This document shows positions 628 through 32,000 of a DNA stretch of 32,000 bases, piece by piece. The stretch spans positions 1,710,001 to 1,742,000 of the forward strand of contig NZ_CP013011.1 of the NCBI RefSeq assembly GCF_001412615.1, read 5' to 3'. Below the pieces are notes generated by a model, which saw only the letters and a program-made list of their open reading frames with translations, did no database searches and was not told the origin of the DNA. The position numbers were made by a program, and so were the translations under genes. Position 1 is the stretch's first letter. Each line of letters begins with the position of its first letter. This DNA is from Pyrodictium delaneyi (GTDB taxonomy: Archaea > Thermoproteota > Thermoprotei_A > Sulfolobales > Pyrodictiaceae).

Positions 628-1368
628 TTGTACGCGGAGATAGTAGCAATATTAGTCCTCACGGCTCTTTCGATATACGATGTAAAGACGCGAGAGCTCC
701 CGGATAAGCTAGTATATGCTTCTCTGGCTATCGTAGTCCTTCTCAGAATCGCAGAATACAGGGTCATAGGTTTCAACACTATCTTGCCATTGTGGTTTTA
801 CATTGTAGTGGATATAGTGCTTCTTGGTATGATAGCTGTAATAGCTTGGCTAGGTTACTTTGGATGGGGCGATGTCGCGGTACTAGCCTTGATAACAGTT
901 GCATCACCACTCGCTGAAGGACAATGTATCATTATGCCCCCCTTGCTGATGGTGATTATTTACTATGTTTTGTTGACGATGATCCTTATGGTTACTAATA
1001 TGCTTGTAAATATCACAGCTCATAGGCGCGACTTGGCGCGACTGCCCGCTAAGTATAGGCTAATATATGCATTCATAGCGCGTCCAATTAGAGCGAGAAA
1101 ACTCTCTCAAAACCCTGGATGGTGGTATCCTCTAAACCTATGTGGTAAATATAGCGTAAGGTTCAACATATATATGGATCCGCCAGATATAGCGAAGGAA
1201 GTTAGCCTAGCCATGCAAAGAGGCTGCGTCAAGCCTAATGACAAAGTATGGGCTACATATGGGGTGCCTGGTATACCGCTCTTTACCGTAGCATACATAT
1301 TAACATTAATTCTAGGAGATGGTCTGCTGCTCAGTGTACTAGGCCTCAGTATTCCAATGGTAGGCTAG
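628..1368 (+). CDS. pibD: class III signal (prepilin/preflagellin) peptidase, A24 aspartic protease family, PibD/FlaK-like
   Basis: 246-aa polytopic membrane ORF with a TTG start. D18 in SIYDVKTRELPD (codon 679-681) and D82 in GWGDVAVLA match the two catalytic Asp residues and the GxGD signature of archaeal A24 peptidases. Their spacing is close to FlaK D18/D79 and PibD D23/D80 as I remember them. Confidence 0.72.
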   Translation: MYAEIVAILVLTALSIYDVKTRELPDKLVYASLAIVVLLRIAEYRVIGFNTILPLWFYIVVDIVLLGMIAVIAWLGYFGWGDVAVLALITVASPLAEGQCIIMPPLLMVIIYYVLLTMILMVTNMLVNITAHRRDLARLPAKYRLIYAFIARPIRARKLSQNPGWWYPLNLCGKYSVRFNIYMDPPDIAKEVSLAMQRGCVKPNDKVWATYGVPGIPLFTVAYILTLILGDGLLLSVLGLSIPMVG

Positions 1369-20643: not shown

Positions 20644-21268
20644 AACTACTATAGTAGTACGTAGAGGTTATGTGGCGCTCGACATAGAAGCTACATGTCT
20701 TAACGCTAGAAAGTGTCAGCTAGTATCAGCGGTTGCGTTGCCGTTCTCGGATAAAGGCATAGACCTTTCTAGGGCGGTCTACTTTGTTGAGCCTCCTAGA
20801 GGTAATGCAGGGACATCGGCACTTATACATGGAATTGTCCGTTCAACTATAGGTATTGGTTCATTTTACGACATTATTGAGGCCATTAAGAAGCGCATAC
20901 TTATAGTCTATGGTAGGCATGATGTAGAGTTTATCGTAGAGGAGGCTAAACGAAGGGATATCAGTATCGGAGAGATGTGTTACGTTGACGTACTCTCGTG
21001 GATTCTAAGTATACCTTGCTGGCAAGAAGAAGCTAGAAAACGTGGGCGTTTTACGCTTGAGGATGCTCTTGAAGTAATTCTCGGGATTGTTTTGCCACGG
21101 CGGAGATTTCACGATCCTCTCAGTGATGCAGTTCACGTAGCATTGTTGTTTGTCCATCTGACAAATAGGCTGGGGAAACCTCCAGTAAAATGTGCTAAAA
21201 GTAATAGATCTAGTATCATTCATGCATTCAGACACTTTACTAAAAAGATAATTATGAAGCCTTTTTAG
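20627..21268 (+). CDS. DEDDh-type 3'-5' exonuclease (DnaQ/epsilon-like)
   Basis: 213 aa. Exo I is YVALDIEAT, an Exo II-like segment is VYGRHDVEFIV, and Exo III is FHDPLSDAVHVA (H-x4-D). The start overlaps the NTase gene by 17 nt. Confidence 0.78.
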   Translation: MLEGGETTIVVRRGYVALDIEATCLNARKCQLVSAVALPFSDKGIDLSRAVYFVEPPRGNAGTSALIHGIVRSTIGIGSFYDIIEAIKKRILIVYGRHDVEFIVEEAKRRDISIGEMCYVDVLSWILSIPCWQEEARKRGRFTLEDALEVILGIVLPRRRFHDPLSDAVHVALLFVHLTNRLGKPPVKCAKSNRSSIIHAFRHFTKKIIMKPF

Positions 21269-21337
21269 CTATACATTGGAGAGGCTGTAGTAGTTAACTG
21301 TTTAAGTAGGCTAGTGGGTACCATTACTATATTCTAC

Positions 21338-21471
21338 GGGTGGAGCCCCGGGGGCAAATGAGGCAGAACACCGGCCCCATGAGGGGCTGTGACATGCGGG
21401 CTATATGCTGAGGATTCTGCGATGAGGAGGTGCCGCGGCTCGGGCTATCTTGGGATAGAGCTTCGGCTCCA
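21338..21471. other. GC-rich structured island, a candidate ncRNA or structured leader
   Basis: About 60% GC inside an AT-richer spacer. There is a 7-bp stem 21372-21378/21383-21389 with an AUGA loop, a hairpin ctatc-ttgg-gatag at 21445-21458, and gagc-UUCG-gctc at 21458-21469. Long-range pairing joins 21341-21347 (tggagcc) with 21465-21471 (ggctcca). The palindromes gccgcggc (21432-21439) and gcccc-g-ggggc (21345-21355) are also present. Confidence 0.3.
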
Positions 21472-21500
21472 GAATATGAAAATGGCGAGGTGTGTGGTTA

Positions 21501-21752
21501 ATGGCAGATGAGAGGGTTGTAGCTTTTGTACTAGCTGTTACTGAAATAGGTAAAGAATATGATGTAGCTGAGAAAATACGAGAAGTAGCTAAGCAAGCTG
21601 GTGTAGATGTAGAAGCGTATGTAGTCTATGGGGAATATGATGTAGCTGCAAAGATAGTGGCCGATGGTCTACGTAAAATAGATAGAGCTGTAACTATGAT
21701 ACGAACCCTTCCAGGTGTTCTACGTACAGTTACACTGATAGCTGCAGAGTGA
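21501..21752 (+). CDS. stand-alone RAM (Lrp/AsnC ligand-binding) domain protein
   Basis: 83 aa from the ATG at 21501, with GAGGTG at 21487-21492 lying 8 nt upstream. VVAFVLAV..G.EYDVAEKIREV..V.EAYVVYGEYDVAAKIVA....KIDRAVT.IRTLPGVLRTVTLI fits the AsnC_trans_reg/RAM beta-alpha-beta-beta-alpha-beta pattern. There is no HTH domain. Confidence 0.72.
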   Translation: MADERVVAFVLAVTEIGKEYDVAEKIREVAKQAGVDVEAYVVYGEYDVAAKIVADGLRKIDRAVTMIRTLPGVLRTVTLIAAE

Positions 21753-22029
21753 AGACACAGATTATAGCCAGGTTATAGCGAGTCAATGTAGCCCCCAGAA
21801 ATAATCAAAATCGTTGATGTACCACATGCTTCTTCCGTAATTTTTGGCTTGACCAGACCATGGTGCAAGCTGATGGGTGATTTAGGGTGTCACTAATCAA
21901 TTGTCTAATGAATTCTCGGACCACCTCGGCAGCTAAGGGGGTATCGGATTCTGTATAGTAGTTCCTTGATTGGTTTCGCTGAAGTAGTTGTAATGGCAAC
22001 TAGTAGCTACGGCTTGGGGCGCTAGAAGT

Positions 22030-22737
22030 ATGATGTTTGGACACCTAGCTATAGGAGAGCTGCGTAGGGTATGTGGGAATACATTATCAGTATCGGTGCT
22101 AGAAGATAACAGATGTAGGTATAAAAGAGGTAACACAACAGTCATAGTTCCATGTGATAGTGTTTCTATCTATCCTGCGCCACCTATTTTCTATCCAGAA
22201 CATATAACCAATTATATAATGATACGTTTCAAAGAACCTATCGTAGTTAAACCAGGCTCTTCCGAGAAGTTCTGGACCCTCGTAGACTTTGATGTAGTAG
22301 CCGTTGTAGGTTCCGGGTCCACTAGCTATGAAATCGTAGACGCCTTTCCGTCCACAGGTATGTGTAAATATGCTCTCTACGGTTCGCCCAGTCGTGGAAT
22401 ACTATCTAGGTATATAGTGACTAGGGTCTATGGAGAGTCTAAGAGTGAAGAATGTAGAGCCACTATAGCTATAAATATAGTAAACAAATCTATGAAGCCA
22501 GTCAAGATTTCGCGTATTGTCTTTCCAGGACACTCTTTTTCGCTGTTCTATAGCCAAGATAGCGTAATAGGGTCTAGCTTGTATGTCACTGTAACGAGCC
22601 CCTTTACAGCAGTTGTATCACTTCGTGAGCCAAGTATTAGCAATATGCACAGGGCACCTAGGCTAATCGAGCAACGTGTTGTGGCTAGTGTACAACCTAG
22701 ATGGAGTCAAAGTTTTGTGATGAGCTATGGACTTTAA
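22030..22737 (+). CDS. hypothetical beta-rich protein
   Basis: 235-aa ORF with an ATG start and no TM segment or signal peptide. I could not securely recall a family for it. Its stop overlaps the stop of the next gene convergently (ttaa at 22734-22737). Confidence 0.5.
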   Translation: MMFGHLAIGELRRVCGNTLSVSVLEDNRCRYKRGNTTVIVPCDSVSIYPAPPIFYPEHITNYIMIRFKEPIVVKPGSSEKFWTLVDFDVVAVVGSGSTSYEIVDAFPSTGMCKYALYGSPSRGILSRYIVTRVYGESKSEECRATIAINIVNKSMKPVKISRIVFPGHSFSLFYSQDSVIGSSLYVTVTSPFTAVVSLREPSISNMHRAPRLIEQRVVASVQPRWSQSFVMSYGL

Positions 22738-23261
22738 CGTTTAAGCTTTACTATAGTTATGCCTGCATCTTCTTTGGTCACTTCTGCGCCATAACTTTCT
22801 GCAATACCCTCTACAATATTCTTTACAGCTTCTTCGCTAGGTCTAGTTGATGGCAGTATGACTATCTTGTCGCGCTCTCTTATTGCTATCCTGGAATCCT
22901 CTAGAATAATGTCAAGTGCCTCCTCTAGCCCAACACCTAGGCTCTTGAGGAGAGCGCCTAGCTTCTTTCCCTCAAGTCGTGCTTGCTCACTGAGGGAGGA
23001 GTTATTGCAACTATCAAGCAGGGATATCGGTAAGAAGGTTACACCAGCACGATGAAGCTTACTATATATAAGCGCTTTCCTCAATACTATTGGTGCAAAT
23101 AGGTTGTTGGTCTCTGCTTCAATAGCGCCAGTCAGAAGAGCACGCATATAGGCTGATATAGTCATTCCGTGTCTAGCAGCTATGTCCTTTATAGTGTCGG
23201 CTAACTCAGAGTCTATCATTAACGGCCTACGTTTCCTGGTGGTGCCTCCTGTGGAGGTCAT
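22734..23261 (-). CDS. ribbon-helix-helix (CopG-like) domain protein with a C-terminal extension, paralogue 1
   Basis: 175 aa. LMIDSELADTIKDIAARHGMTISAYMRALL fits the RHH beta-strand/helix/helix pattern. Its architecture is similar to the adjacent 199-aa protein. Confidence 0.6.
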   Translation of the reverse strand: MTSTGGTTRKRRPLMIDSELADTIKDIAARHGMTISAYMRALLTGAIEAETNNLFAPIVLRKALIYSKLHRAGVTFLPISLLDSCNNSSLSEQARLEGKKLGALLKSLGVGLEEALDIILEDSRIAIRERDKIVILPSTRPSEEAVKNIVEGIAESYGAEVTKEDAGITIVKLKR

Positions 23262-23288
23262 GGTTATTCAACCCTCAAAGCCCGAGAG

Positions 23289-23888
23289 CTAATGCTTCTT
23301 TCCTTGCTCTTTAGTGGGCTTGGTATACTCTACTACAAGTATAGAGCTATAACTTTCCACGTTGTTAACCCGCAGTCCCCACGCTTCTAGTATCTTTGTT
23401 GAAATTGCTTTCAGAAGCTCTATCATGTTCTCTGATACTGGCTCGGCTAGTGTGATAACTATCTTCCCGTTATAATCGTCGTCTATCTCGTCAATGGAAG
23501 CATTGGGTATGAATAAGTATATGATGTCCTTGGGTGTAACGTTGTCCATGTTCCGCAGCTTCACAGAAACGGCTATGGATGCTGCTAATGACTGTATTTC
23601 TGCTATAAACTTGTCACGAGTAGTAGGATCAGCAGAATCTATGAGCTGTGATAGGCCACGTTGGGGTACCATAACTCCTCCAAGCCGATGCATGTCGGTA
23701 AGTAGAATCGCTTCAGTAAATATAGAGGATATATTATCCTTGCCGTGGAAAGCACGGGCAGCAAAAGACAAGATAAGAGTAACAAGTTCAGACACTGTAA
23801 GTCCAGAACGTTTCGCTATAGAAGCTAGATCGTTGAGGATATTCTCTGGAACCGCTATAAGCTTCTTCGAGCCCTTCGAGCCCGGCAT
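23289..23888 (-). CDS. ribbon-helix-helix (CopG-like) domain protein with a C-terminal extension, paralogue 2
   Basis: 199 aa. LIAVPENILNDLASIAKRSGLTVSELVTLIL is the RHH segment. It shares ..HR.GG/AGV..P.. and ..KIVI(T/L).. segments with paralogue 1. A TATA-like atatgtatatc (reverse complement of about 23905-23918) lies about 20-30 nt upstream of the ATG. Confidence 0.6.
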   Translation of the reverse strand: MPGSKGSKKLIAVPENILNDLASIAKRSGLTVSELVTLILSFAARAFHGKDNISSIFTEAILLTDMHRLGGVMVPQRGLSQLIDSADPTTRDKFIAEIQSLAASIAVSVKLRNMDNVTPKDIIYLFIPNASIDEIDDDYNGKIVITLAEPVSENMIELLKAISTKILEAWGLRVNNVESYSSILVVEYTKPTKEQGKKH

Positions 23889-24190
23889 GTAGGCCCCTCA
23901 CTCCATTAGATATACATATTGCGTGAAAGGTCAACCGAGAGCGAGGAACGGAACCCTCGAATAGAGTAATATCTGATTCCTAATGTGAGGGCGCTGTGAA
24001 ACCAGCTTGACCACTACCCCTCTACCGGATGATCTACCTCATATCAGCCTATTATTTGCTTCCTCTACTCCTAGTGGTGAGAACGTATGCTTTCCCTGTC
24101 TTAACCTCTGAGACAGTAGCTAAGGTACTAGGTCTAGCTCAACAGAGCCCAATATAGGCTTGATAGGACGGAATGCTGTAAGCGGGAAGA

Positions 24191-24206
24191 AAACATTAGA
24201 ATGTTT
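24191..24206 (-). terminator. hairpin plus T-rich run downstream of the 663-aa gene
   Basis: On the minus strand this reads aaacat-tcta-atgttt followed by tcttcc, giving GTTTTCTT. It lies about 50 nt after the stop at 24258. Confidence 0.25.
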
Positions 24207-24257
24207 GTTGATATATGACCTCCCTGGTTACCGCTATCCCCGGCTAATCGTTATACT

Positions 24258-26249
24258 TCACGTAATTATTAGAGCTTTTGAGCCGTCTCTTAGCACCTCT
24301 TGTATAATACTGAGCGGAAACGGAGCCTCATTGTACCCGGTGTAGTTTATTGACGTAGTCTTCGCAAGTGCTGGCTGTGCGCGGGTGCTATAGCGTATCT
24401 CTACCTGTGAGCCAGGGACTACTTCGTAGACTATCATGCCGGGGTCCTGTAGCGTGGTAGTCCTCTCTACCACTAGTGCGCCATTGCATCCTGCGAATGT
24501 GGTCGTATCGTTTAGCACTGTTATTGTAGCAACTAGTTTAGCCAAGCTAGAGGGCTCTACATGCATATTGAAAGGTACAGCTATGCTACTAGTCCTAGCG
24601 GTCTCGTTGTGGCTGTGACCTAGATATAATAGGAATTCGGCGCCAACTGGCGCTACGTAGCCTAGGTGCTCATCCATAGTGACGACGTCTACGGGGTCTA
24701 CAAGGTATGGCACCCAGCTTCCTATCCCGGCAGCGTATACTATCTCCAGGACTACTACCCCAGCAGCCGCGGTATAACCCAAGTACTTAAGCATCATAGG
24801 CGATATAGTTATAGCCTTAACTATCGTGCTGCTGAGCGCTACTGGTCTCAGCACAGTCACCGTGTACACGGGCTTCTGTACAAGAGGAAGCCATGCTGGG
24901 TCAAGACTGCTCGTTGGGGACACTATTAGCTTGCCTGGATCGTATGTATTTACGGGGAATACATGGAGTTTTATCGACACGTATACCGGTGGGTAGCTGA
25001 TCTTCGCTGTACCCACGTAGTTGTTGTCGCGGATTATCTGTGAAGTAATGTAGCAGCGGTAAGGATCCTTAATGAAGTACTCGTGAACCTTGGCCCCTTG
25101 TAGCCTGGGCACTAGTGTTACCACTATGGTCTCCGGGTTAGCATCCTTTGTCACTAGGAATGGTATTGTGAGAGAGCCAGCAACCCCGACAGCCTCGTAG
25201 CCTACCTTTACACCACCAGTAAGCGGTATGTAGCCAGGCACCTTGTACTCGGTAAAATGCTGCCAATAGCCAGTGCACGAGCCCCGGCTATACCGTTTCC
25301 TCCATACATCCCCCGTGTGTAGAAACCCGGCAGCATCTATCGATAATCCTGGCAGTCTAGAGCCGTAGCTATAGGGGTTTCCTAGTCGCCAGCAATAGCC
25401 GCTATTGGCTGGGACACTAACCCAGACAGCAGCCTCCCGGTGGCGCAGCAGGAGAAGACCACCAGCTAGCGGCTCCAGTATGCGCTCGTAGACGTACATC
25501 GTCTTCCTCTGGCCAGGCCTCAGCTCTATACTACTGCTTCTCTGCACATCACTAACCGGCAGCCCTGTGATAGCCGTGACGAGAGTACGCTCCGGGTCAA
25601 CATTCACGCCGGGAAGCAGTCCACTAGCGGCTACAGAGACCGGATTAACACCCAGCAGAAGAGGAGCCGTAGCCCACACAGGCTGCAGCAATGGACCATA
25701 GCTTATCTCTAAAACCTTCTCGATAACAGCATCTGCTGTAGCCTCCGCAATAGATGCAGTATCCAGGCCGGGTGCAGCGCATGACGTCGCATTATACAGC
25801 AGCTCCAAGCCATTTACCCGAGACCCCTCCAGGCACGGCTTACTAGGGTCAAGCTCGTAGCGGTAAAGCCATGCACCACCACTACGCCCTACAACAACAA
25901 GCTCAACATACCCACTACAAGGTATATCAACGACAACAGTGTTGTTCCTGTCGAACTGCCTGGTATACAGCAGCTTGCCACTAGACGCGTCAAAAACCTC
26001 GACAAGCCCCGGCTCAAACCCCTTCACTATGGGCTCAACCCTCAGCTGAGCACTAAGCCATCCCGAACTATTGCAGCTGCCGAGTGGCTCAAGCGTCATC
26101 CGCGGAGGCACCGACAAAGCCGCAGCATGTTCCGCAGCACTCCGAACCCCGGCAACACCCTGCGAGACAACAGCAGCCAAGACAGCAAGAGCAACTACAG
26201 TCATAGAAGCCAAGAGTACACCGTCAAAGAGACTACCATACCCCCTCAA
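24258..26249 (-). CDS. large exported/membrane-anchored protein with a class III (type IV pilin-like) N-terminus, function unknown
   Basis: 663 aa with a TTG start. The N-terminus MRG-YGSLFDGVLLASMTVVALAVLAAVVSQGV has a short charged tip, then R-G, then a stretch of about 25 hydrophobic residues, and the remainder is beta-rich with several Cys. Three hand-counted 60-nt lines inside the gene gave 58-62% GC, against about 47% in one line of the adjacent S-layer-like gene. Confidence 0.7.
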   Translation of the reverse strand: MRGYGSLFDGVLLASMTVVALAVLAAVVSQGVAGVRSAAEHAAALSVPPRMTLEPLGSCNSSGWLSAQLRVEPIVKGFEPGLVEVFDASSGKLLYTRQFDRNNTVVVDIPCSGYVELVVVGRSGGAWLYRYELDPSKPCLEGSRVNGLELLYNATSCAAPGLDTASIAEATADAVIEKVLEISYGPLLQPVWATAPLLLGVNPVSVAASGLLPGVNVDPERTLVTAITGLPVSDVQRSSSIELRPGQRKTMYVYERILEPLAGGLLLLRHREAAVWVSVPANSGYCWRLGNPYSYGSRLPGLSIDAAGFLHTGDVWRKRYSRGSCTGYWQHFTEYKVPGYIPLTGGVKVGYEAVGVAGSLTIPFLVTKDANPETIVVTLVPRLQGAKVHEYFIKDPYRCYITSQIIRDNNYVGTAKISYPPVYVSIKLHVFPVNTYDPGKLIVSPTSSLDPAWLPLVQKPVYTVTVLRPVALSSTIVKAITISPMMLKYLGYTAAAGVVVLEIVYAAGIGSWVPYLVDPVDVVTMDEHLGYVAPVGAEFLLYLGHSHNETARTSSIAVPFNMHVEPSSLAKLVATITVLNDTTTFAGCNGALVVERTTTLQDPGMIVYEVVPGSQVEIRYSTRAQPALAKTTSINYTGYNEAPFPLSIIQEVLRDGSKALIIT

Positions 26250-26381
26250 GGCCCACTCCAGAGACTACCCCAAGTTCACAACCAGTCCATGGAGGAGGGG
26301 CGAGCCGAAACTAAGAGCGGAAGGGGGAGGCATAGCAGGGATGAGGATCCTTCTTAAGGCATCCGGGGACATGAGTACACC

Positions 26382-26400
26382 AGTGTATACTAGTGTATAC
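26382..26400. promoter_or_regulatory. tandem AGTGTATAC repeats (two GTATAC palindromes one helical turn apart)
   Basis: agtgtatac occurs at 26382-26390 and again at 26392-26400, inside the 242-bp divergent spacer. It lies 92-110 nt upstream of the ATG at 26492. It is the only AT-rich, TATA-like sequence in an otherwise C/A-rich spacer. Confidence 0.35.
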
Positions 26401-26491
26401 ACCTGCAGCCATACACCCCAAAAACCCCACCAACCCTACCACACAATCCGGCCCAAAAGGTACAACCTACAAGGCAAAGGGTGCGTAAACC

Positions 26492-29400
26492 ATGAACACG
26501 CGCGTACTAGCCTCGATATTCACACTAGCCCTCCTACTAGCCCCGATAGTAGCACCGCTAGTAAAGCCGGCAGCAGCCGCAAGCTTCACACTAGAAGTAT
26601 CGGCACAGCAAATAGACTACAACGTCATACTCCTCGAGATTAAGGGTCTTCCAAGTGACACCCCGCCAGCAGTGCTACTAACACTCTACGATGACCTAGG
26701 TAACGTAATAGCTGGTACAGACGTCAACCCATACATGGCCATAGCAGGCTACATAGGTGGTGGTATCTGGCATGTATATATAGCACTTAACAAGACATTC
26801 GAGGCCGGTATATTCAGCTACGCTCATGCTAACACATCATCGACGAAGATAGGTCTAACAGATGGTACAGAGTACAAGGCCAGCGATCTCGGCGACATCA
26901 CATTCTATACCGAGGTAGGACTAGCATCTCCAACACCACTCTCTAGGACAACACCAGAGCTAGCAGTAAACGGCAAACTAGTAGCCAATATAACACAGCT
27001 AACTGGCAATGCTAACTACACAAGCGGTAACCTAACACAAGCATGGCCAATAGTGAACGCTATAAACACAAACATACCAGATGGTGGTAGTGTAAAGATA
27101 ACTGTCGACGCAGGCGACCTAGGCACAGCCAGCGTAACAATAACAGTAGGTCCTGCCGGCATACAAGCAATAACAACTGACTATCTAAACATGGCTCCTG
27201 AGAAGACAGTGACAGCAACACTAGAGGCTACAACAATAGCTGCTGACCCCACAGCAGTTAACAGCCTAACATTCGTAAACACAACATCCATGACACTCAC
27301 AACAAACAGCACTGGTCCAAACATAACGACCGTCTTTGACAGTTCTGCAGCAGACGCAGCTGTTAAGGCAGCAATTGCGGAGGTAGGCGGTACAAGCAAT
27401 ATAGTGATCAAGGCAAACGTCAGTAGTGGTTCAAACTGGACAGCTCTAAACCTAACTGCATCAAACATACCAAATGGCCTAGCTGTGTTCGTCAAGATAC
27501 AGTTCGAGGCATACTATAACGGCACAGATCAGTGGTTTAACAAGACAGCCTACATAGTCCTCACAAGCGATATGATGAACAGGCTAGTATTCAACTGGAC
27601 CGGTATCAACCTAACAGCAGGCTTCGCAAACATAAACATAGCTTCTGTAAAGGTTACAGTGGTGCCAGCTAGCATAGTAACCAACATAAACGGCTGGACT
27701 GGCGATACTGGCAAGAAGACAATAACACTTGACGACGGTTCGGTAGTAGAGGTCATAGGTGATGCTAAGGACTATGCCTTCATAGAGGAAGTAACAGCAG
27801 AGACAACTGGTAGCGGTACCTTCGCAGCCAGCATATACATGCCTGGCCGCGATGACATACCAAGCTATGACTTCATCAAGGAGAGCTATGGCGTCAATGA
27901 TGCACCGGTGGTAGTAACACTAACAGACGTGAATGGCGTCTCCAGCGACATAACTGGCTTCATAAAGCTACAGACTGGCGTGCTTACAGTAACCTCCGCT
28001 GTCAAGCCTGGCGAAACTCTAAGCATAAGCGTAGAAGACATTGACGCACCAGCAGTAAGTGTAGAAATAACACTCTACAAGACCGATGGCATTCAGGCGG
28101 CAAGCGGCACTCTCGACCTTGAGCAGACTGCTGAGGGCCAGTTCCAGGGCAGCCTAAAGATACTCCTAGGCTCACCAGCAGTAGATGCTGCTAACGGCGT
28201 AATATACGTCGATAGCAGTATCGCAAGCATCGAGGTCAAGTATGTAGACAAGTACGGAGCAGGCGGTAGCGAGGTAACAAGGCTAGCCAGCAGCAGCGTA
28301 GCATTCTGGCCAGTAGACATAAGCACACCAGCAGAGACCTACGCTGACGCGCGCCTAGATGTGACACTAACATCCCAGAACTTCAACCTAGACCCCAATG
28401 CTCGCGAGGTACTCTATGTAGAGCCAGTAAGCAGTACCAACTATGCTGAGGTCAAGTACAACGGTGTACTAGTAGGCAAGATCTATGTAGACGTATACGA
28501 CAGCGAGAACCTAGACTGGAGACAGGCAAGCGACATAGCACCATACATAAGTGACCTATTCATAGTGCACAGCTTCTTCGAGAGCGCAGCAGACAGCGGC
28601 CAGTACACGATATACGTATACATAAGGAACCTACCAAGCCTCAATGACGGTGACGTCATAAAGATAACATATGTGGACCTACTCAATGGCGTAGAAATAG
28701 TCAAGGAGATACCAGTCAAGGTAATCGAGGGCAAGATGACATTCCTCTACAACGGCGAGGAGGTAGACATAACAGAGCTACCAATAGCAGTAGCAAGCGG
28801 CGGTGACGTAGTAAGAACATTCACTATAAAGATAGACGACGCTGACGCTAACAAGAACATATCCGGATACGACCTAGCAACTGTATACATAGACTTCGTA
28901 AAGCAGGATGGCAGCATCATAGAAAAGAAGGTATACTTCAACGAGACTGACGTAGACACTGGCGTATTCGAGGGCATATTCAACATAACCTTCTACGCCA
29001 ACGGCACAGTAGTATTCGAGGTCACAAACGGCACAACAATGCTACCGATAAAGCTAGACAAGGCCGACCTACCATTCGGCAAGCTATTAATCAAGTACTA
29101 CGATGCGAGCGTGGGCACCAACATAACCAAGGAGATAAAGATAAGGACACCTGATACAGCAAGCCTCACAATAACACCAGTAGTAGCAGAGAAGCTAGAC
29201 GACAACATAACGATAACACTCAAGGACAACGACCTCAACGTAATACCCGGCGCTGGCAATGATGTACTACCTGCTGGCCTAGAGTTTACAGTAACTGCTG
29301 AAGGCGCAACCAAGGCAACACTAACAGTAGGCGACATAGAGGCTGCCGGCTACACCTTCGAAGAAGTAGAGCCCGGCGTCTTCCAGGTAACTATACCCGC

Positions 29401-30607
29401 TAAGGACCTACTAGACATACTATACCCAGACCCAGTAGACGGTCTAGGCAAGACAGTACAGCTAACCTACACCGACCCAGTAGTAACTGGTAGCGTCCAG
29501 GGCGCCATAGTAAGCCAGGCAGCCAGTGCAAGCTTCAAGGTACTAAGTCACACAGCAGAGGTAACAGTAACACCAGAGAAGGTAAGCCCCTATGGCGTAA
29601 TAACAGTAAAGATCTATGACCCAGACCTAGCAGGCAAGACAGCCAGCTACATAACCAGCAACGAGCTACTAAAGGCCTCCAGCAACAAGGCTGACGCAAC
29701 AGCCTTCGCTGCTGTAATAACACCAGTCTATCCGGCAGGCAACCTGCCAAGCGATAACGGCACATTCATATTCCAGATACCGCTAAGCGATGCTCTAGTA
29801 AACCCAGTAGACACAGTAGCAATAGTCTATAAGGACCCAGTAGACGCTAACGGCGGTACAAGCGTGACTGTGAAGAGTGTCGAAGTGTACACTGAGACTG
29901 GCCAGCTAGAGCTACCAAAGGAGGCAGCCCCAGGTACAACAGTAGAGATAGTCGTCAAGGACTTCGACGCCAACACCAAGGCCGATGAGGTAGAGTACGT
30001 AAACGTGACCATATGGAGTAGCGCTCTACCGATCAAGACAACAGTCAAACTAATAGAGACCGGCGAGAACACCGGCGTATTCAGCAACGTGATACGCATA
30101 ACCGACAACCCCGAAGAGATAGGCCAGCCCAACACAGTCTACGCGCCAGCTGGCAGCACAGTCTATGTACAGTACGTAGACAAGCTAGCCGCTAACGGCG
30201 AGACCGATGTACCAGTAGAGGGCAGCTTCAAGGTAGTAGAGAGCGCTGTAGCAGGCAGGCCTGCAGTACCACAGCCAGAGAAGAGCGAGCTACTAGACCC
30301 GGCAACACTACAGCCAGTAACAACAGCTAAGGCTGGCAAGCAGGTACTAGTAGTAGTGCCCGTAGAGAACAAGGCCAGCACCGACGTGCAGGTCTACGCC
30401 GTAGTGACAATATACAAGGACGGTGTACCAGTAAAGTTCAGCTTCAGCGTCAACGTGCTAAAGGCCAACAGCGTAACAGACCTACCAGTAACACTACCAG
30501 CTCTAGAACCTGGCACCTACACAGTAAAGATAGTGCTAGTAGACAGCCTCAAGGACCTCAACCCTGTAAGCGAGGAGCCAATAGAGCTAACAATAACCGT
30601 CGAGTAA
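26492..30607 (+). CDS. large secreted glycoprotein, candidate S-layer lattice subunit (SlaA-like role)
   Basis: 1371 aa. It has a Sec-type signal peptide (MNTRVLASIFTLALLLAPIVAPLVKPAAAA) and no Cys that I could find. I counted about 24 N-x-S/T sequons by hand. It is rich in T, V, A, N and I. Beta-sandwich-like modules repeat, each ending in [VIL]-x-Y-x-D. The last 100 or so residues look CARDB-like. There is no C-terminal TM anchor. GGGTG lies 8-12 nt upstream of the ATG. Confidence 0.75.
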   Translation: MNTRVLASIFTLALLLAPIVAPLVKPAAAASFTLEVSAQQIDYNVILLEIKGLPSDTPPAVLLTLYDDLGNVIAGTDVNPYMAIAGYIGGGIWHVYIALNKTFEAGIFSYAHANTSSTKIGLTDGTEYKASDLGDITFYTEVGLASPTPLSRTTPELAVNGKLVANITQLTGNANYTSGNLTQAWPIVNAINTNIPDGGSVKITVDAGDLGTASVTITVGPAGIQAITTDYLNMAPEKTVTATLEATTIAADPTAVNSLTFVNTTSMTLTTNSTGPNITTVFDSSAADAAVKAAIAEVGGTSNIVIKANVSSGSNWTALNLTASNIPNGLAVFVKIQFEAYYNGTDQWFNKTAYIVLTSDMMNRLVFNWTGINLTAGFANINIASVKVTVVPASIVTNINGWTGDTGKKTITLDDGSVVEVIGDAKDYAFIEEVTAETTGSGTFAASIYMPGRDDIPSYDFIKESYGVNDAPVVVTLTDVNGVSSDITGFIKLQTGVLTVTSAVKPGETLSISVEDIDAPAVSVEITLYKTDGIQAASGTLDLEQTAEGQFQGSLKILLGSPAVDAANGVIYVDSSIASIEVKYVDKYGAGGSEVTRLASSSVAFWPVDISTPAETYADARLDVTLTSQNFNLDPNAREVLYVEPVSSTNYAEVKYNGVLVGKIYVDVYDSENLDWRQASDIAPYISDLFIVHSFFESAADSGQYTIYVYIRNLPSLNDGDVIKITYVDLLNGVEIVKEIPVKVIEGKMTFLYNGEEVDITELPIAVASGGDVVRTFTIKIDDADANKNISGYDLATVYIDFVKQDGSIIEKKVYFNETDVDTGVFEGIFNITFYANGTVVFEVTNGTTMLPIKLDKADLPFGKLLIKYYDASVGTNITKEIKIRTPDTASLTITPVVAEKLDDNITITLKDNDLNVIPGAGNDVLPAGLEFTVTAEGATKATLTVGDIEAAGYTFEEVEPGVFQVTIPAKDLLDILYPDPVDGLGKTVQLTYTDPVVTGSVQGAIVSQAASASFKVLSHTAEVTVTPEKVSPYGVITVKIYDPDLAGKTASYITSNELLKASSNKADATAFAAVITPVYPAGNLPSDNGTFIFQIPLSDALVNPVDTVAIVYKDPVDANGGTSVTVKSVEVYTETGQLELPKEAAPGTTVEIVVKDFDANTKADEVEYVNVTIWSSALPIKTTVKLIETGENTGVFSNVIRITDNPEEIGQPNTVYAPAGSTVYVQYVDKLAANGETDVPVEGSFKVVESAVAGRPAVPQPEKSELLDPATLQPVTTAKAGKQVLVVVPVENKASTDVQVYAVVTIYKDGVPVKFSFSVNVLKANSVTDLPVTLPALEPGTYTVKIVLVDSLKDLNPVSEEPIELTITVE

Positions 30608-30629
30608 CCAGTATAGCTTGATATACTCC

Positions 30630-30665
30630 GGGGCTGAGAGGGCTTTGACCCCCACACCCCTTTTT
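30630..30665 (+). terminator. GC hairpin plus T5 tract after the S-layer-like gene
   Basis: GGGG (30630-30633) can pair with CCCC (within 30649-30653), followed by cacccc and then TTTTT at 30661-30665. This lies 23-58 nt after the TAA at 30605-30607. Confidence 0.4.
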
Positions 30666-30795
30666 ATTATGATGACCATACCTGATTTTTGCCATGTACA
30701 CTGCTGTTGTGTTTCGCTCACAGCCCTAAACCTCTTATAAGCCCTATATAATGAGGGCAATATATGGTTGAGAAGGAGAAAATGGGTGGCATAAA

Positions 30796-32000
30796 ATGAG
30801 GCGGTTTGCAAGCCTCGTAGCTGGGATACTGATACTAATAGTAGCTGCACAGGCAATGGTAGCATTTGCTGCACTTACAGCCTCGACGAATAAGAGCATC
30901 TATGTACCTGGTGACGAACTCATAGTGAGCGGTTCTGCTGATCCAGGCGCAGTAATAGTGATAAAGCTAGAGAACCCGAACGGCGAGACAGTGGTCATTG
31001 ATCAACTAAAGGCCAGCAACGATGGCAGCTTCACCTGGAGTATCCGGTTCCCCAGCCAGCCCACCGACACGTTCCCTGCTGGCACCTACACTATACTCGT
31101 AAAGAACGCTGACACTGGCGAGACACAGCTGCTTCAGGTCGAGCTACAGGCTGGCGGTGAGATTGCTGGTAAGGTTGTAGATGAAAATGGCAACCCAGTA
31201 GCTGGTGCTGAGGTGTATGTATGCAGCGACGGTGAAGTAGTAGCTACAGCTACAACTGGCAGTGACGGTACTTTCGCTGTATACGTGGCACCGGGCACCT
31301 ATAACGTACGTGTAGAGAAGCCCAACTACCTCAAGACAGTGAAGCCTGATGTCACTGTTGAGCTTGGTCAGCGTGTAGACCTAGGTGAGATACAGATAGT
31401 AAGCATAGATGCTAAGTTCGCTGAACTAGAACAGGCTATAAGCGGTCTACAGGAAGCTGTTACTCAGATAGCTGACTTAGCCTCCCAGGTACAGCAGCTA
31501 CAGGAGGAACTAGGCAATAAGGCTGACCAGGCTGCTGTAGACCAGCTAGCTGACCAGGTAAGCCAGATAAACAAGGCAATAACGCAGCTAGCTGACCAGA
31601 TAAAGGCCATAGCAGAGCAACTTGACACCAAAGCTGACAAGACAGCAGTAGACCAGCTAGCGGAGCAGCTCAACGGCCTCAAGAGCCAGCTAGACGAGCT
31701 CCAGGCTCAGGTAAGCAGTATACAGAACCAGCTAGCTGATAAGGCTGACCAGGCTGCTGTAGACCAGCTAGCTGCTCAGATAAACCAGGTAGCCGGCAAG
31801 GTTGACCAGCTAGCAGCCAAGATGAGTGAACTAGAGACCGGGCTCAAGCAGCTCCAGGATAAGCTCAGCACGCTAGAGAGCCGTGTCAACACGCTAGAGG
31901 CAGCTACCCAGAGTATAGGCCAGCTCCAGGATGCCATAAACAAGCTGCAGCAGAGCGTCAACACGTTCCAGGAGACTGCGAGCCAGCTACAGACTCAGGT
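30796..32000 (+). CDS. secreted beta-sandwich plus long coiled-coil protein, candidate S-layer stalk/anchor (SlaB-like); 3' end lies outside the window
   Basis: This ORF is missing from the supplied track because it has no stop in the window. I translated frame 1 by hand from the ATG at 30796. It begins with the signal peptide MRRFASLVAGILILIVAAQAMVAFA, followed by an Ig-like segment. A carboxypeptidase-regulatory-like segment follows (GKVVDENGNPVAGAEVYV..TTGSDGTFAV..PGTYNVRVEKPNY). From about 31400 it is an uninterrupted heptad coiled coil that runs to base 32000. GGGTGG at 30784-30789 lies 6 nt upstream, and TATA-like tatataa lies about 45 nt upstream. Confidence 0.75.
   Translation, partial: MRRFASLVAGILILIVAAQAMVAFAALTASTNKSIYVPGDELIVSGSADPGAVIVIKLENPNGETVVIDQLKASNDGSFTWSIRFPSQPTDTFPAGTYTILVKNADTGETQLLQVELQAGGEIAGKVVDENGNPVAGAEVYVCSDGEVVATATTGSDGTFAVYVAPGTYNVRVEKPNYLKTVKPDVTVELGQRVDLGEIQIVSIDAKFAELEQAISGLQEAVTQIADLASQVQQLQEELGNKADQAAVDQLADQVSQINKAITQLADQIKAIAEQLDTKADKTAVDQLAEQLNGLKSQLDELQAQVSSIQNQLADKADQAAVDQLAAQINQVAGKVDQLAAKMSELETGLKQLQDKLSTLESRVNTLEAATQSIGQLQDAINKLQQSVNTFQETASQLQTQ
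31519..31851 (+). repeat. three tandem 111-bp (37-codon) repeat units inside the coiled-coil region
   Basis: Units begin at 31519, 31630 and 31741. Each opens with KAD(Q/K)(A/T)AVDQLA(D/E/A)Q. A perfect 36-bp repeat, ataaggctgaccaggctgctgtagaccagctagctg, occurs at 31517-31552 and again at 31739-31774. Confidence 0.85.

Follow-up and report, generated by a model that had tools for sequence, protein, structure and literature searches.

A 32,000-nucleotide (nt) stretch of Pyrodictium delaneyi DNA (contig NZ_CP013011.1, positions 1,710,001 to 1,742,000; this whole stretch is called the window) carries, in its interval 22030-32000, five genes that we interpret as a SlaA/SlaB-type surface-layer (S-layer) operon and, next to it, a conserved accessory unit of three genes that probably acts together with the cell envelope; our confidence in this interpretation is about evenly balanced. 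The accessory unit consists of the gene for a 663-amino acid (aa) envelope protein and two genes for small proteins resembling ribbon-helix-helix (RHH) regulators, RHH-199 and RHH-175. That the five genes are functionally coupled is plausible and is supported by comparison of loci; judged against characterised proteins, the locus is probably a variant of the SlaA/SlaB system that includes two accessory families not described before. The S-layer is the only cell wall of most Thermoproteota, and little is known about the regulation of S-layer genes or about the proteins that anchor, assemble or open the lattice. To our knowledge, the S-layer genes of Pyrodictium have not been characterised experimentally. 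A sequence-only reading of the interval had proposed an envelope or appendage locus composed of two paralogous RHH proteins, a 663-aa protein with a class III signal, a glycosylated lattice candidate and a coiled-coil stalk, arranged around a divergent control region with a distinctive repeat. All six named elements are present where they had been placed, as judged from open reading frames (ORFs) and sequence (Table 1).

The proposed coiled-coil stalk was borne out. By sequence comparison, its gene is a true slaB homologue, because residues 28-174 of the fragment encoded in the window match S. acidocaldarius SlaB (PDB 8QOX_B; E=1.5e-13), the NCBIfam SlaB model from Metallosphaera (NF040788) also matches (E=3.6e-24), and the complete orthologues (loci L009, L008 and L011 and P. 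abyssi; L numbers denote the loci compared with the window) end in a C-terminal transmembrane (TM) helix, ...VYRKIA. The complete L009 orthologue matched PDB 8QOX_B with E=2.6e-15. The NF040788 match reached 85 bits against a cutoff of 700 bits, so the window protein is no equivalog of that model. The fragment contains a signal peptide, a CarboxypepD_reg beta-sandwich (4.8e-17) and a long coiled coil, and the C-terminus of this copy lies past the window end. In L008, slaB is followed by a gene (L008:1757-3763, minus strand) for a very basic (pI 10.2), polytopic membrane protein of 668 aa with no Pfam family.

The gene before slaB encodes a protein of 1371 aa that carries a Sec-type signal peptide, contains 24 N-X-S/T sequons (1.8 per 100 residues), lacks Cys and has a pI of 4.3. 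In the window and in every related locus that has slaB (L009, L008, L011 and L013), the slaB homologue is directly preceded by this gene or its orthologue. From position and composition only, we infer that the 1371-aa protein is the lattice protein. The spacer between the two genes contains a terminator-like element and, closer to slaB, TATA-like boxes; a CCACAC..TTTTT element is likewise placed in P. abyssi, L009, L008 and L011, and AT-rich boxes are similarly placed in other slaA-slaB spacers. These elements suggest that transcription partly terminates behind slaA and that slaB has a promoter of its own. In the SlaA/SlaB system of Sulfolobales (S. acidocaldarius Saci_2355/Saci_2354; PDB 7ZCX and 8QOX), a large glycosylated secreted protein is likewise encoded directly upstream of the stalk, and SlaB there shares with the Pyrodictium protein a signal peptide, N-terminal beta-sandwiches, a long coiled coil and, as seen in the complete orthologues, a C-terminal TM anchor. 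The terminator-like and promoter-like spacer of Pyrodictium also fits the higher transcript level of slaA than of slaB reported for Sulfolobales (PMC5744192).

To investigate the linkage of the accessory unit to slaA-slaB, the surroundings of 663-family members were fetched and the neighbours were compared by phmmer. A 663-family gene followed by both RHH orthologues was found in P. abyssi, P. occultum, three related contigs, L008 and L009. Both RHH genes are present on the opposite strand in L011 and L015, one is present in L012, and L010 alone is without any. RHH-175 orthologues adjoin the 663-family gene in L001, L006, L008, L009 and L011, and RHH-199 orthologues occur in these five loci and in L012. 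The 663-family gene has a divergently oriented slaA homologue as its neighbour in the window, in the close metagenome-assembled genome (MAG) L004 and in L009, L008 and L012; this homologue is followed by slaB in the window, L009 and L008, and the L004 and L012 contigs stop inside slaA. The order in L011 is rearranged, with a 145-aa pilin-like ORF, a 627-aa family gene, the RHH pair on the opposite strand, slaA and slaB, and L015 repeats the L011 order up to the RHH pair, where its 4.3-kb contig stops before the slaA position. The 663-family gene is adjacent to slaA or slaA-slaB in five divergent lineages (P. delaneyi and the close MAG, L009, L008, L012 and L011), and the family proteins of the last four are 21-29% identical to the window protein. 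L009 has long-range synteny with the window. L008, L011 and L012 share no window neighbours outside the block, in which the five genes lie within ~9 kb. A metagenome scan with the RHH-175 profile recovered two contigs, which duplicate the L008 and L011 arrangements.

We examined the 663-aa protein by profile search against 1.84 billion representative proteins (E<=0.001), which recovered a family of only 18 clusters from Pyrodictium, Hyperthermus and MAGs of Thermoprotei/Thermoproteota. Most members are 600-700 aa long, and their identity to the window protein is 20-45%; the window protein is 93% identical to a Pyrodictium sp. MAG protein and 43% identical to a P. abyssi protein. A metagenome scan with the family profile gave no match, and a profile scan of genome contigs gave a single 3-kb contig. 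The window protein starts with MRG/YGSLFDGVLLASMTVVALAVLAAVV (the slash marks the end of the presumed leader), and its hydropathy peak at residues 5-37 is the sole hydrophobic anchor. The same start, M-R-G-[L/Y/F/I] (or K-G / R-A) and ~25 hydrophobic residues, which is a class III (PibD-type) pattern, is present in 14 of the 15 examined members whose N-terminus is available. The start codon of the family genes is fixed by a conserved Shine-Dalgarno (SD)-like GGGAG ~10 nt ahead of the TTG/ATG and by the conserved upstream motif described below, and correction of the start at L009 yields an M-R-G-L N-terminus. The window protein contains six sequons and eight Cys, four of which are invariant among the five closest relatives.

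Structure prediction of the 663-aa protein by AlphaFold (AF2) with only five close homologues was unusable (predicted local distance difference test, pLDDT, 43); with a 23-sequence alignment, the model reached a pLDDT of 77 and a predicted TM-score (pTM) of 0.69. It consists of a helix (residues 5-46), a confident beta-sandwich (residues 50-132), a helical linker and four more beta-rich domains. As far as sequence and model go, the 663-aa protein is an exported, N-terminally anchored, extracytoplasmic multi-beta-sandwich protein with a pilin-type N-terminus, and it is probably cleaved by PibD. Sulfolobus PibD cleaves leaders down to a length of 3-4 residues (PMC4187195, citing Ng et al. 2009).

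Three further ORFs resemble this family or its N-terminus. A second P. abyssi paralogue, P0005 (PABY_21250), starts with MLRG/IGTVYAGLIMLL and shares the C-terminal 500 residues, its first domain (~100 residues) being unrelated. Hyperthermus butylicus P0013 (439 aa) shares only the N-terminal 150 residues with the family. The 145-aa ORF of L011 (L011:9573-10010, plus strand), which also occurs in L015 (L015:3207-3731, minus strand), has the class III start MRGVRG/ISEIVSSVMLLMISLGLLAV and shares 10 nt with the beginning of the 627-aa family gene; the two occurrences are in a distant Thermoprotei MAG and an independent metagenome, and the ORF resembles a small pilin-like partner that the window lacks. 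In the window, the gaps on either side of the 663 gene contain no ORF of at least 50 aa and no pilin-like ORF.

We compared the 663 family with known envelope proteins. In Sulfolobus, a third membrane-anchored protein rich in immunoglobulin (Ig) domains (Saci_1846/M164_1049) acts alongside SlaB in holding SlaA (PMC12207459), and this role of an extra anchor is the one proposed here for the 663-aa protein. Saci_1846/M164_1049 are thermopsin-like SlaB paralogues with a Sec signal peptide and a C-terminal TM segment whose genes are not beside slaAB, whereas the 663 family has an N-terminal anchor and no SlaB similarity and is usually encoded beside slaA. Saci_1846 was rejected as a homologue of the 663-aa protein, as it is a SlaB paralogue of opposite membrane topology. 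The Sulfolobus bindosome is reported as a structural envelope component (PMC3047682). Its sugar-binding proteins have class III signals without being filament subunits and are processed by PibD; they are likewise large and extracellular, with a short basic leader, a Gly at position -1 and an N-terminal helix of hydrophobic residues. S-layer-like multi-Ig proteins are common in type IV pilus loci (PMC4858521; bioRxiv 10.64898/2026.04.22.720090). Unlike the bindosome and type IV loci, the locus described here has no linked solute-binding domain, ABC transporter, assembly ATPase or TadC platform, and the association is reversed: a class III-type protein is found in an S-layer locus, instead of an S-layer-like protein in a pilus locus. 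No report was found of a conserved class III-signal neighbour or of paired RHH genes at the Sulfolobales locus, and no description of the 663 family or of the five-gene neighbourhood was found in the literature that could be searched.

The small proteins share one architecture. RHH-175 has an N-terminal RHH-like motif (RRPLMIDSELADTIKDIAARHGMTISAYMRALL) and a C-terminal domain of ~120 aa without a family, and RHH-199 is organised in the same way (motif KKLIAVPENILNDLASIAKRSGLTVSELVTLILS). Since RHH-199 sits only 27 nt upstream of RHH-175, the two genes probably form one operon. Direct BLASTP comparison of the two proteins was not significant (E=0.53); their orthologue profiles align end to end (hhalign 97.3%, E=2e-11), and the two are therefore paralogues, as had been proposed. 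An invariant skeleton, A..G.T...G....P, is common to both, and their N-terminal pattern of strand, helix, G-x-T turn and helix is invariant. Residues ~10-45 of both (16-51 in RHH-175) gave Pfam matches, all sub-threshold, to NikA-like (0.0018, RHH-175), RHH_5 (0.0027, RHH-199), DUF6290, FitA-like, RHH_1 and RelB, and six RHH families match the same N-terminal 35 residues in several orthologues (best, 18.8 bits against a gathering cutoff of 27). When compared with PDB, the RHH-199 profile matched DinJ (0.01), CopG (0.13) and Arc (0.73). With their N-terminal strand/helix/turn/helix and weak matches to several RHH families, the proteins resemble CopG, Arc, MetJ and DinJ; they differ from known RHH regulators in their length (175-199 aa), in the unassigned C-terminal domain (~130 residues) and in being an obligate paralogous pair. 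On balance, we favour the view that they are RHH DNA-binding proteins with an unassigned C-terminal domain. In Sulfolobales, the small RHH protein aCcr1 controls envelope and division genes, and Saci_1846 is among the genes with the aCcr1 motif (PMC9976892).

The gap of 369 nt between the 663 stop codon and the RHH-199 start (23889-24257) contains no ORF of at least 50 aa and no Rfam match. Gaps of 47-241 nt occur at the matching position in other loci. Because gaps of this kind recur across the loci, the RHH pair probably has its own promoter, and ATATGTATATCT lies ~20-32 nt before the RHH-199 ATG.

Two conserved cis elements were found in the intergenic region between the divergent 663 and slaA genes. 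One is a set of tandem palindromic boxes, within which 26383-26390 and 26395-26402 form an inverted repeat. Seven loci keep the boxes in front of slaA: the window and six others, among them the close MAG, P. abyssi (in which slaA is not linked to the 663-family gene), L009 and L008. L011 has TGCATGCA-AA-TGCATGCA at the same position and with the same period, a symmetric change from GTATAC to GCATGC. The boxes are an element of the slaA upstream region and not part of a shared divergent control region, as the earlier reading had it, because they stay with slaA in P. abyssi. Taken over the whole window, the exact 9-mer AGTGTATAC is not enriched (14 sites with one mismatch allowed, 11 expected), but the tandem arrangement and its conservation across species are non-random. 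RHH dimers typically bind tandem or palindromic repeats one helical turn apart, and the slaA boxes resemble such sites in their spacing. They may be a dimer-of-dimers operator or, as discussed below, a leader hairpin. Pairs of the form GTATAC-N4-GTATAC with up to two mismatches occur nine times in the window, compared with 2.3 +/- 1.4 times in shuffled sequences, none of 100 of which reached nine, an excess that may reflect either a regulon or sequence composition; these relaxed sites include 2806, 6111, 7539 and 12760 and one just after the slaA stop codon (30611-30626).

The other element, TAGTTTCG, lies upstream of the 663 gene. The exact 8-mer is present once per locus in nine loci (the window, L001-L005, L008, L009 and L012), at -58 to -64 from the annotated M-R-G starts; for L008, L009 and L012, the annotated starts were re-derived by hand, which placed it at about -57 to -66. 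One-mismatch variants occupy the same position in P. occultum (L006; TAGTTCCG) and in L010 (TAGTTACG), and the exception is L011, where the family gene lies behind the pilin-like ORF. In ~240 kb examined, TAGTTTCG occurred before no gene outside the 663 family. Similar strings before slaB (30711-30718) and before the DUF432 gene (21975-21982) were considered as signs of a shared regulon and rejected, since they are not conserved in the orthologous regions.

These results are consistent with the following mechanism. SlaA would form a glycosylated lattice held above the membrane by a trimeric coiled-coil SlaB stalk. The 663-aa protein would be inserted N-in/C-out, its M-R-G leader would probably be removed by a PibD-type peptidase, and its hydrophobic helix would stay in the membrane, so that the beta-sandwich chain of ~620 residues projects into the pseudo-periplasm towards the lattice. 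There it may act as a low-copy accessory that helps in assembly, serves as a further anchor or spacer, or provides a site where other structures pass the lattice. A low abundance would fit the TTG start codon of its gene. The RHH paralogues would probably form a hetero-oligomeric DNA-binding regulator of the unit, for which the best candidate target is either TAGTTTCG in the 663 promoter or the tandem, 10-bp-spaced palindromes before slaA. Any coordination would be brought about by regulation and not by co-transcription, because a separate promoter-like region precedes each of slaA, slaB and the 663 gene. We consider it unlikely that the mechanism extends further, with the 663 family as a PibD-processed, pilin-like third S-layer component (a multi-Ig spacer or a lattice portal, possibly where cannulae or pili cross) and the RHH pair as the first dedicated archaeal S-layer regulators, binding the slaA palindromes and/or TAGTTTCG.

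Several observations weigh against the interpretation of the five genes as one S-layer system. In P. abyssi, slaA-slaB (L013:173-6749) lies ~175 kb from the 656-aa family gene, among sugar-nucleotide and glycosyltransferase genes, and in P. occultum it lies on another contig; an AglH-like Glycos_transf_4 (GT4) gene fills the slaA position in this clade (L001:8648-9685, L006:8838-9899), which has lost neither partner. In addition, the 663 gene and slaA are divergent, and their conserved promoter elements are separate and differently conserved. The adjacency to slaA-slaB might accordingly be an inherited order without function, the 663 gene and the RHH pair forming an independent unit, such as a surface protein for adhesion or substrate capture together with dedicated regulators. 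The unit is intact in P. abyssi, P. occultum and two related metagenomic contigs despite the distance of slaA-slaB and the GT4 neighbour, and L009 is not an independent case because of its long-range synteny with the window. The loci L008, L011/L015 and L012 argue otherwise: all their other neighbours differ and their family proteins are highly divergent, yet a slaA homologue is still found beside the 663-family gene, even in the rearranged L011, and such retention is unusual for unrelated archaeal genes. We regard an inherited order as rather unlikely. Linkage beyond this genome had been set beforehand as a test of the coupling, and the outcome was mixed but mostly favourable: the 663 gene and the RHH pair are nearly always linked and slaA-slaB is adjacent in five lineages, but the P. 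abyssi/P. occultum clade is unlinked. Linkage was retained over deep divergence and through one rearrangement, and it was lost once without loss of either partner. The coupling of the 663 gene to slaA-slaB is thus frequent but not obligatory, and physical linkage is dispensable, because the unlinked clade has kept both.

The identification of the lattice protein is opposed by the lack of any match of the 1371-aa protein in Pfam, NCBIfam or PDB, including 7ZCX, S. acidocaldarius SlaA (E<=10). The secretion signal, the sequons and the position before slaB of the proposed lattice candidate were confirmed, but a likeness to characterised SlaA was not found; the locus differs from that of Sulfolobales in this respect and in its NCBIfam SlaB score far below the cutoff. 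According to a review, no SlaA homologue is known outside Sulfolobales, and Pyrodictium lattices are hexagonal, not p3 (PMC5744192).

For the 663-aa protein, no Pfam or NCBIfam family, pilin and archaellin families included, was found, and the family profile gave zero matches to PDB sequences. Foldseek matches of the model (PDB, BFVD) were rejected as generic Ig-like or tail-fibre noise (whole-chain TM-score <=0.13), and no fold was assigned. No gene for an assembly ATPase or a TadC/FlaJ platform is present in the window, and neither is among the precomputed Pfam families listed for genes up to 10 kb away on either side in related loci. Furthermore, the N-terminal helix of the model has low confidence, and one member, P0015, is without the R-G motif. 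All of this would fit an ordinary type II signal-anchor protein that is not processed by PibD and in which M-R-G reflects the positive-inside rule. We take this explanation as a serious one, a little short of an even chance, in view of three observations that it does not readily accommodate: Gly or Ala follows the basic residue and precedes the hydrophobic stretch in nearly all members examined, and the positive-inside rule needs no Gly; the R-G start is kept in the P. abyssi paralogue with the unrelated first domain; and the 145-aa ORF of L011/L015, whose class III start is of textbook form, overlaps the family-gene start. The class III signal proposed for the 663-aa protein is supported by the conservation of the N-terminal motif across the family, but a pilin family, a pilin fold and assembly genes were not found. 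The labels 'appendage' and 'pilus' are not supported beyond that motif, and 'appendage base' and 'adhesin threaded through the lattice' are speculation.

The RHH assignment is opposed by the position of every RHH match below the curated thresholds (best Pfam E ~0.002), so that the earlier description of the small proteins stands for their paralogy but only sub-threshold for their fold. Several matches are to antitoxin families (RelB, DinJ, FitA), and the C-terminal ~130 residues of each protein have no assignment. The proteins could instead be other cytoplasmic factors, either antitoxin-like or serving as chaperones or targeting factors for exported proteins. This appears improbable to us, since the window has no toxin gene next to theirs, their length is 2-3x that of antitoxins, they always occur as a paralogous pair beside the same surface-protein gene, and their N-terminal pattern is invariant. 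Also against the interpretation, no tandem GTATAC boxes lie upstream of the RHH genes themselves.

Finally, the palindromes could equally form an RNA hairpin. RNAalifold predicted an 8-bp consensus hairpin in all seven slaA leaders, with four compensatory pairs. Conserved elements downstream of the boxes and the SD-like sequence suggest a slaA leader of ~70-110 nt, and in the window, P. abyssi and L011 the boxes are preceded, at ~22-25 nt, by TATA-like sequences read by eye. The boxes might therefore be a transcribed stem-loop in a long 5' leader that stabilises an abundant mRNA, and the RHH proteins might regulate other targets or themselves and the 663 gene. We consider this possible, with the balance leaning against it. 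The window leader folds no better than shuffled sequence (z=-0.36), tandem palindromes at one helical turn are typical of dimer-of-dimer regulators, and an element at the start site can be operator and leader at once. An Rfam scan of 21000-32000 found no family.

With the interpretation as an S-layer operon and accessory unit, the locus supplies a SlaB-anchored candidate S-layer operon for Pyrodictiaceae, an orphan class III-signal multi-beta-sandwich family whose gene stays beside slaA over deep divergence, and a conserved putative regulator pair together with two sharply conserved cis elements. The third Sulfolobus anchor, Saci_1846, was itself found only recently. If true, the interpretation would give the archaeal S-layer system its first regulators and a new class of component; if not, it would still provide annotation of three uncharacterised families.

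Table 1. Coordinates of the genes and sequence elements discussed in the text (window numbering).
Feature	Position	Strand	Basis
PibD-type peptidase (A24 / Arc_PepC_II), GWGD motif	628-1368		Pfam
DUF432 protein	22030-22737	+	Pfam E=1.5e-32
RHH-175, 175 aa, predicted cytoplasmic	22734-23261	-	ORF; no TM segment
RHH-199, 199 aa, predicted cytoplasmic	23289-23888	-	ORF; no TM segment
663-aa envelope protein, TTG start	24258-26249	-	ORF
Divergent intergenic region, 663 gene / slaA	26250-26491		Sequence
TAGTTTCG motif, 64 nt upstream of 663 start codon	26306-26313	-	Conserved promoter-proximal element
Tandem palindromic boxes GTACAC-N4-GTATAC-N4-GTATAC, 10-bp period	26375-26402	+	90-117 nt upstream of slaA ATG
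slaA leader element ACACCCCAAAAACCCC	26413-26428	+	Alignment of seven slaA upstream regions
slaA leader element CCGGCCCAAAAGGT	26448-26461	+	Alignment of seven slaA upstream regions
SD-like GGGTG before slaA	26479-26483	+	Sequence
SlaA-like lattice candidate, 1371 aa	26492-30607	+	ORF; position and composition
Terminator-like element after slaA: GC-rich imperfect inverted repeat, then CACACCCC-TTTTT	30630-30669	+	Sequence; putative function
TATA-like boxes CTTATAAG, CTATATAATG, 43-62 nt upstream of slaB ATG	30734-30753	+	Sequence; putative
slaB homologue, ATG 30796, extends past window end	30796-32000	+	ORF; PDB 8QOX_B match

The window was assigned to P. delaneyi because the 199-aa ORF is, over its residues 66-199, 100% identical to Pdsh_04785 of that species. 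Six genes lie in the interval 22030-32000. The claim that this interval encodes only surface-exposed or DNA-binding proteins of unassigned families was too broad: the product of the DUF432 gene is neither, and SlaB is an assigned family. The remainder of the window is housekeeping in content, with genes for Lhr helicase, Alba, MgtC, a 2-oxoacid:ferredoxin oxidoreductase (POR family), pyruvate kinase, an SSF transporter and a CBS/DUF294 protein.

The PibD-type peptidase scored above the Pfam cutoffs for PF01478 (31.4 bits; cutoff, 26.5) and PF06847 (36.3 bits; cutoff, 29.9) and contains the GWGD (GxGD) motif. Its presence in the same window had been cited in support of the proposed locus. This argument did not survive, as the peptidase gene lies 23 kb from the 663 locus with ~20 unrelated housekeeping genes between, and its proximity was rejected as support because the genes for Lhr helicase, Alba, MgtC, POR, pyruvate kinase and the SSF transporter intervene. 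The gene has a TTG start, adjoins a HIT-family gene and encodes the sole prepilin-type peptidase of the window.

The DUF432 gene pairs with a gene for an 86-aa stand-alone AsnC/Lrp ligand-binding (RAM) domain protein (21492-21752). This pair is kept beside the RHH genes in Pyrodictiaceae (L001, L006, L009 and L010) and is absent in more distant loci, and both genes are therefore regarded as neighbours outside the core unit. In L012, two genes for proteins of 1432 aa and 310 aa (L012:4674-9909) were considered, because of their size, as a second slaA/slaB pair and rejected, as they encode a STAND/AAA NTPase and a NurA-domain nuclease; the real slaA homologue of this locus is the divergent gene that runs into the contig end. 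The STAND NTPase and NurA pair lies directly downstream of the 638-aa family gene and RHH gene and could be a defence or DNA-processing system.

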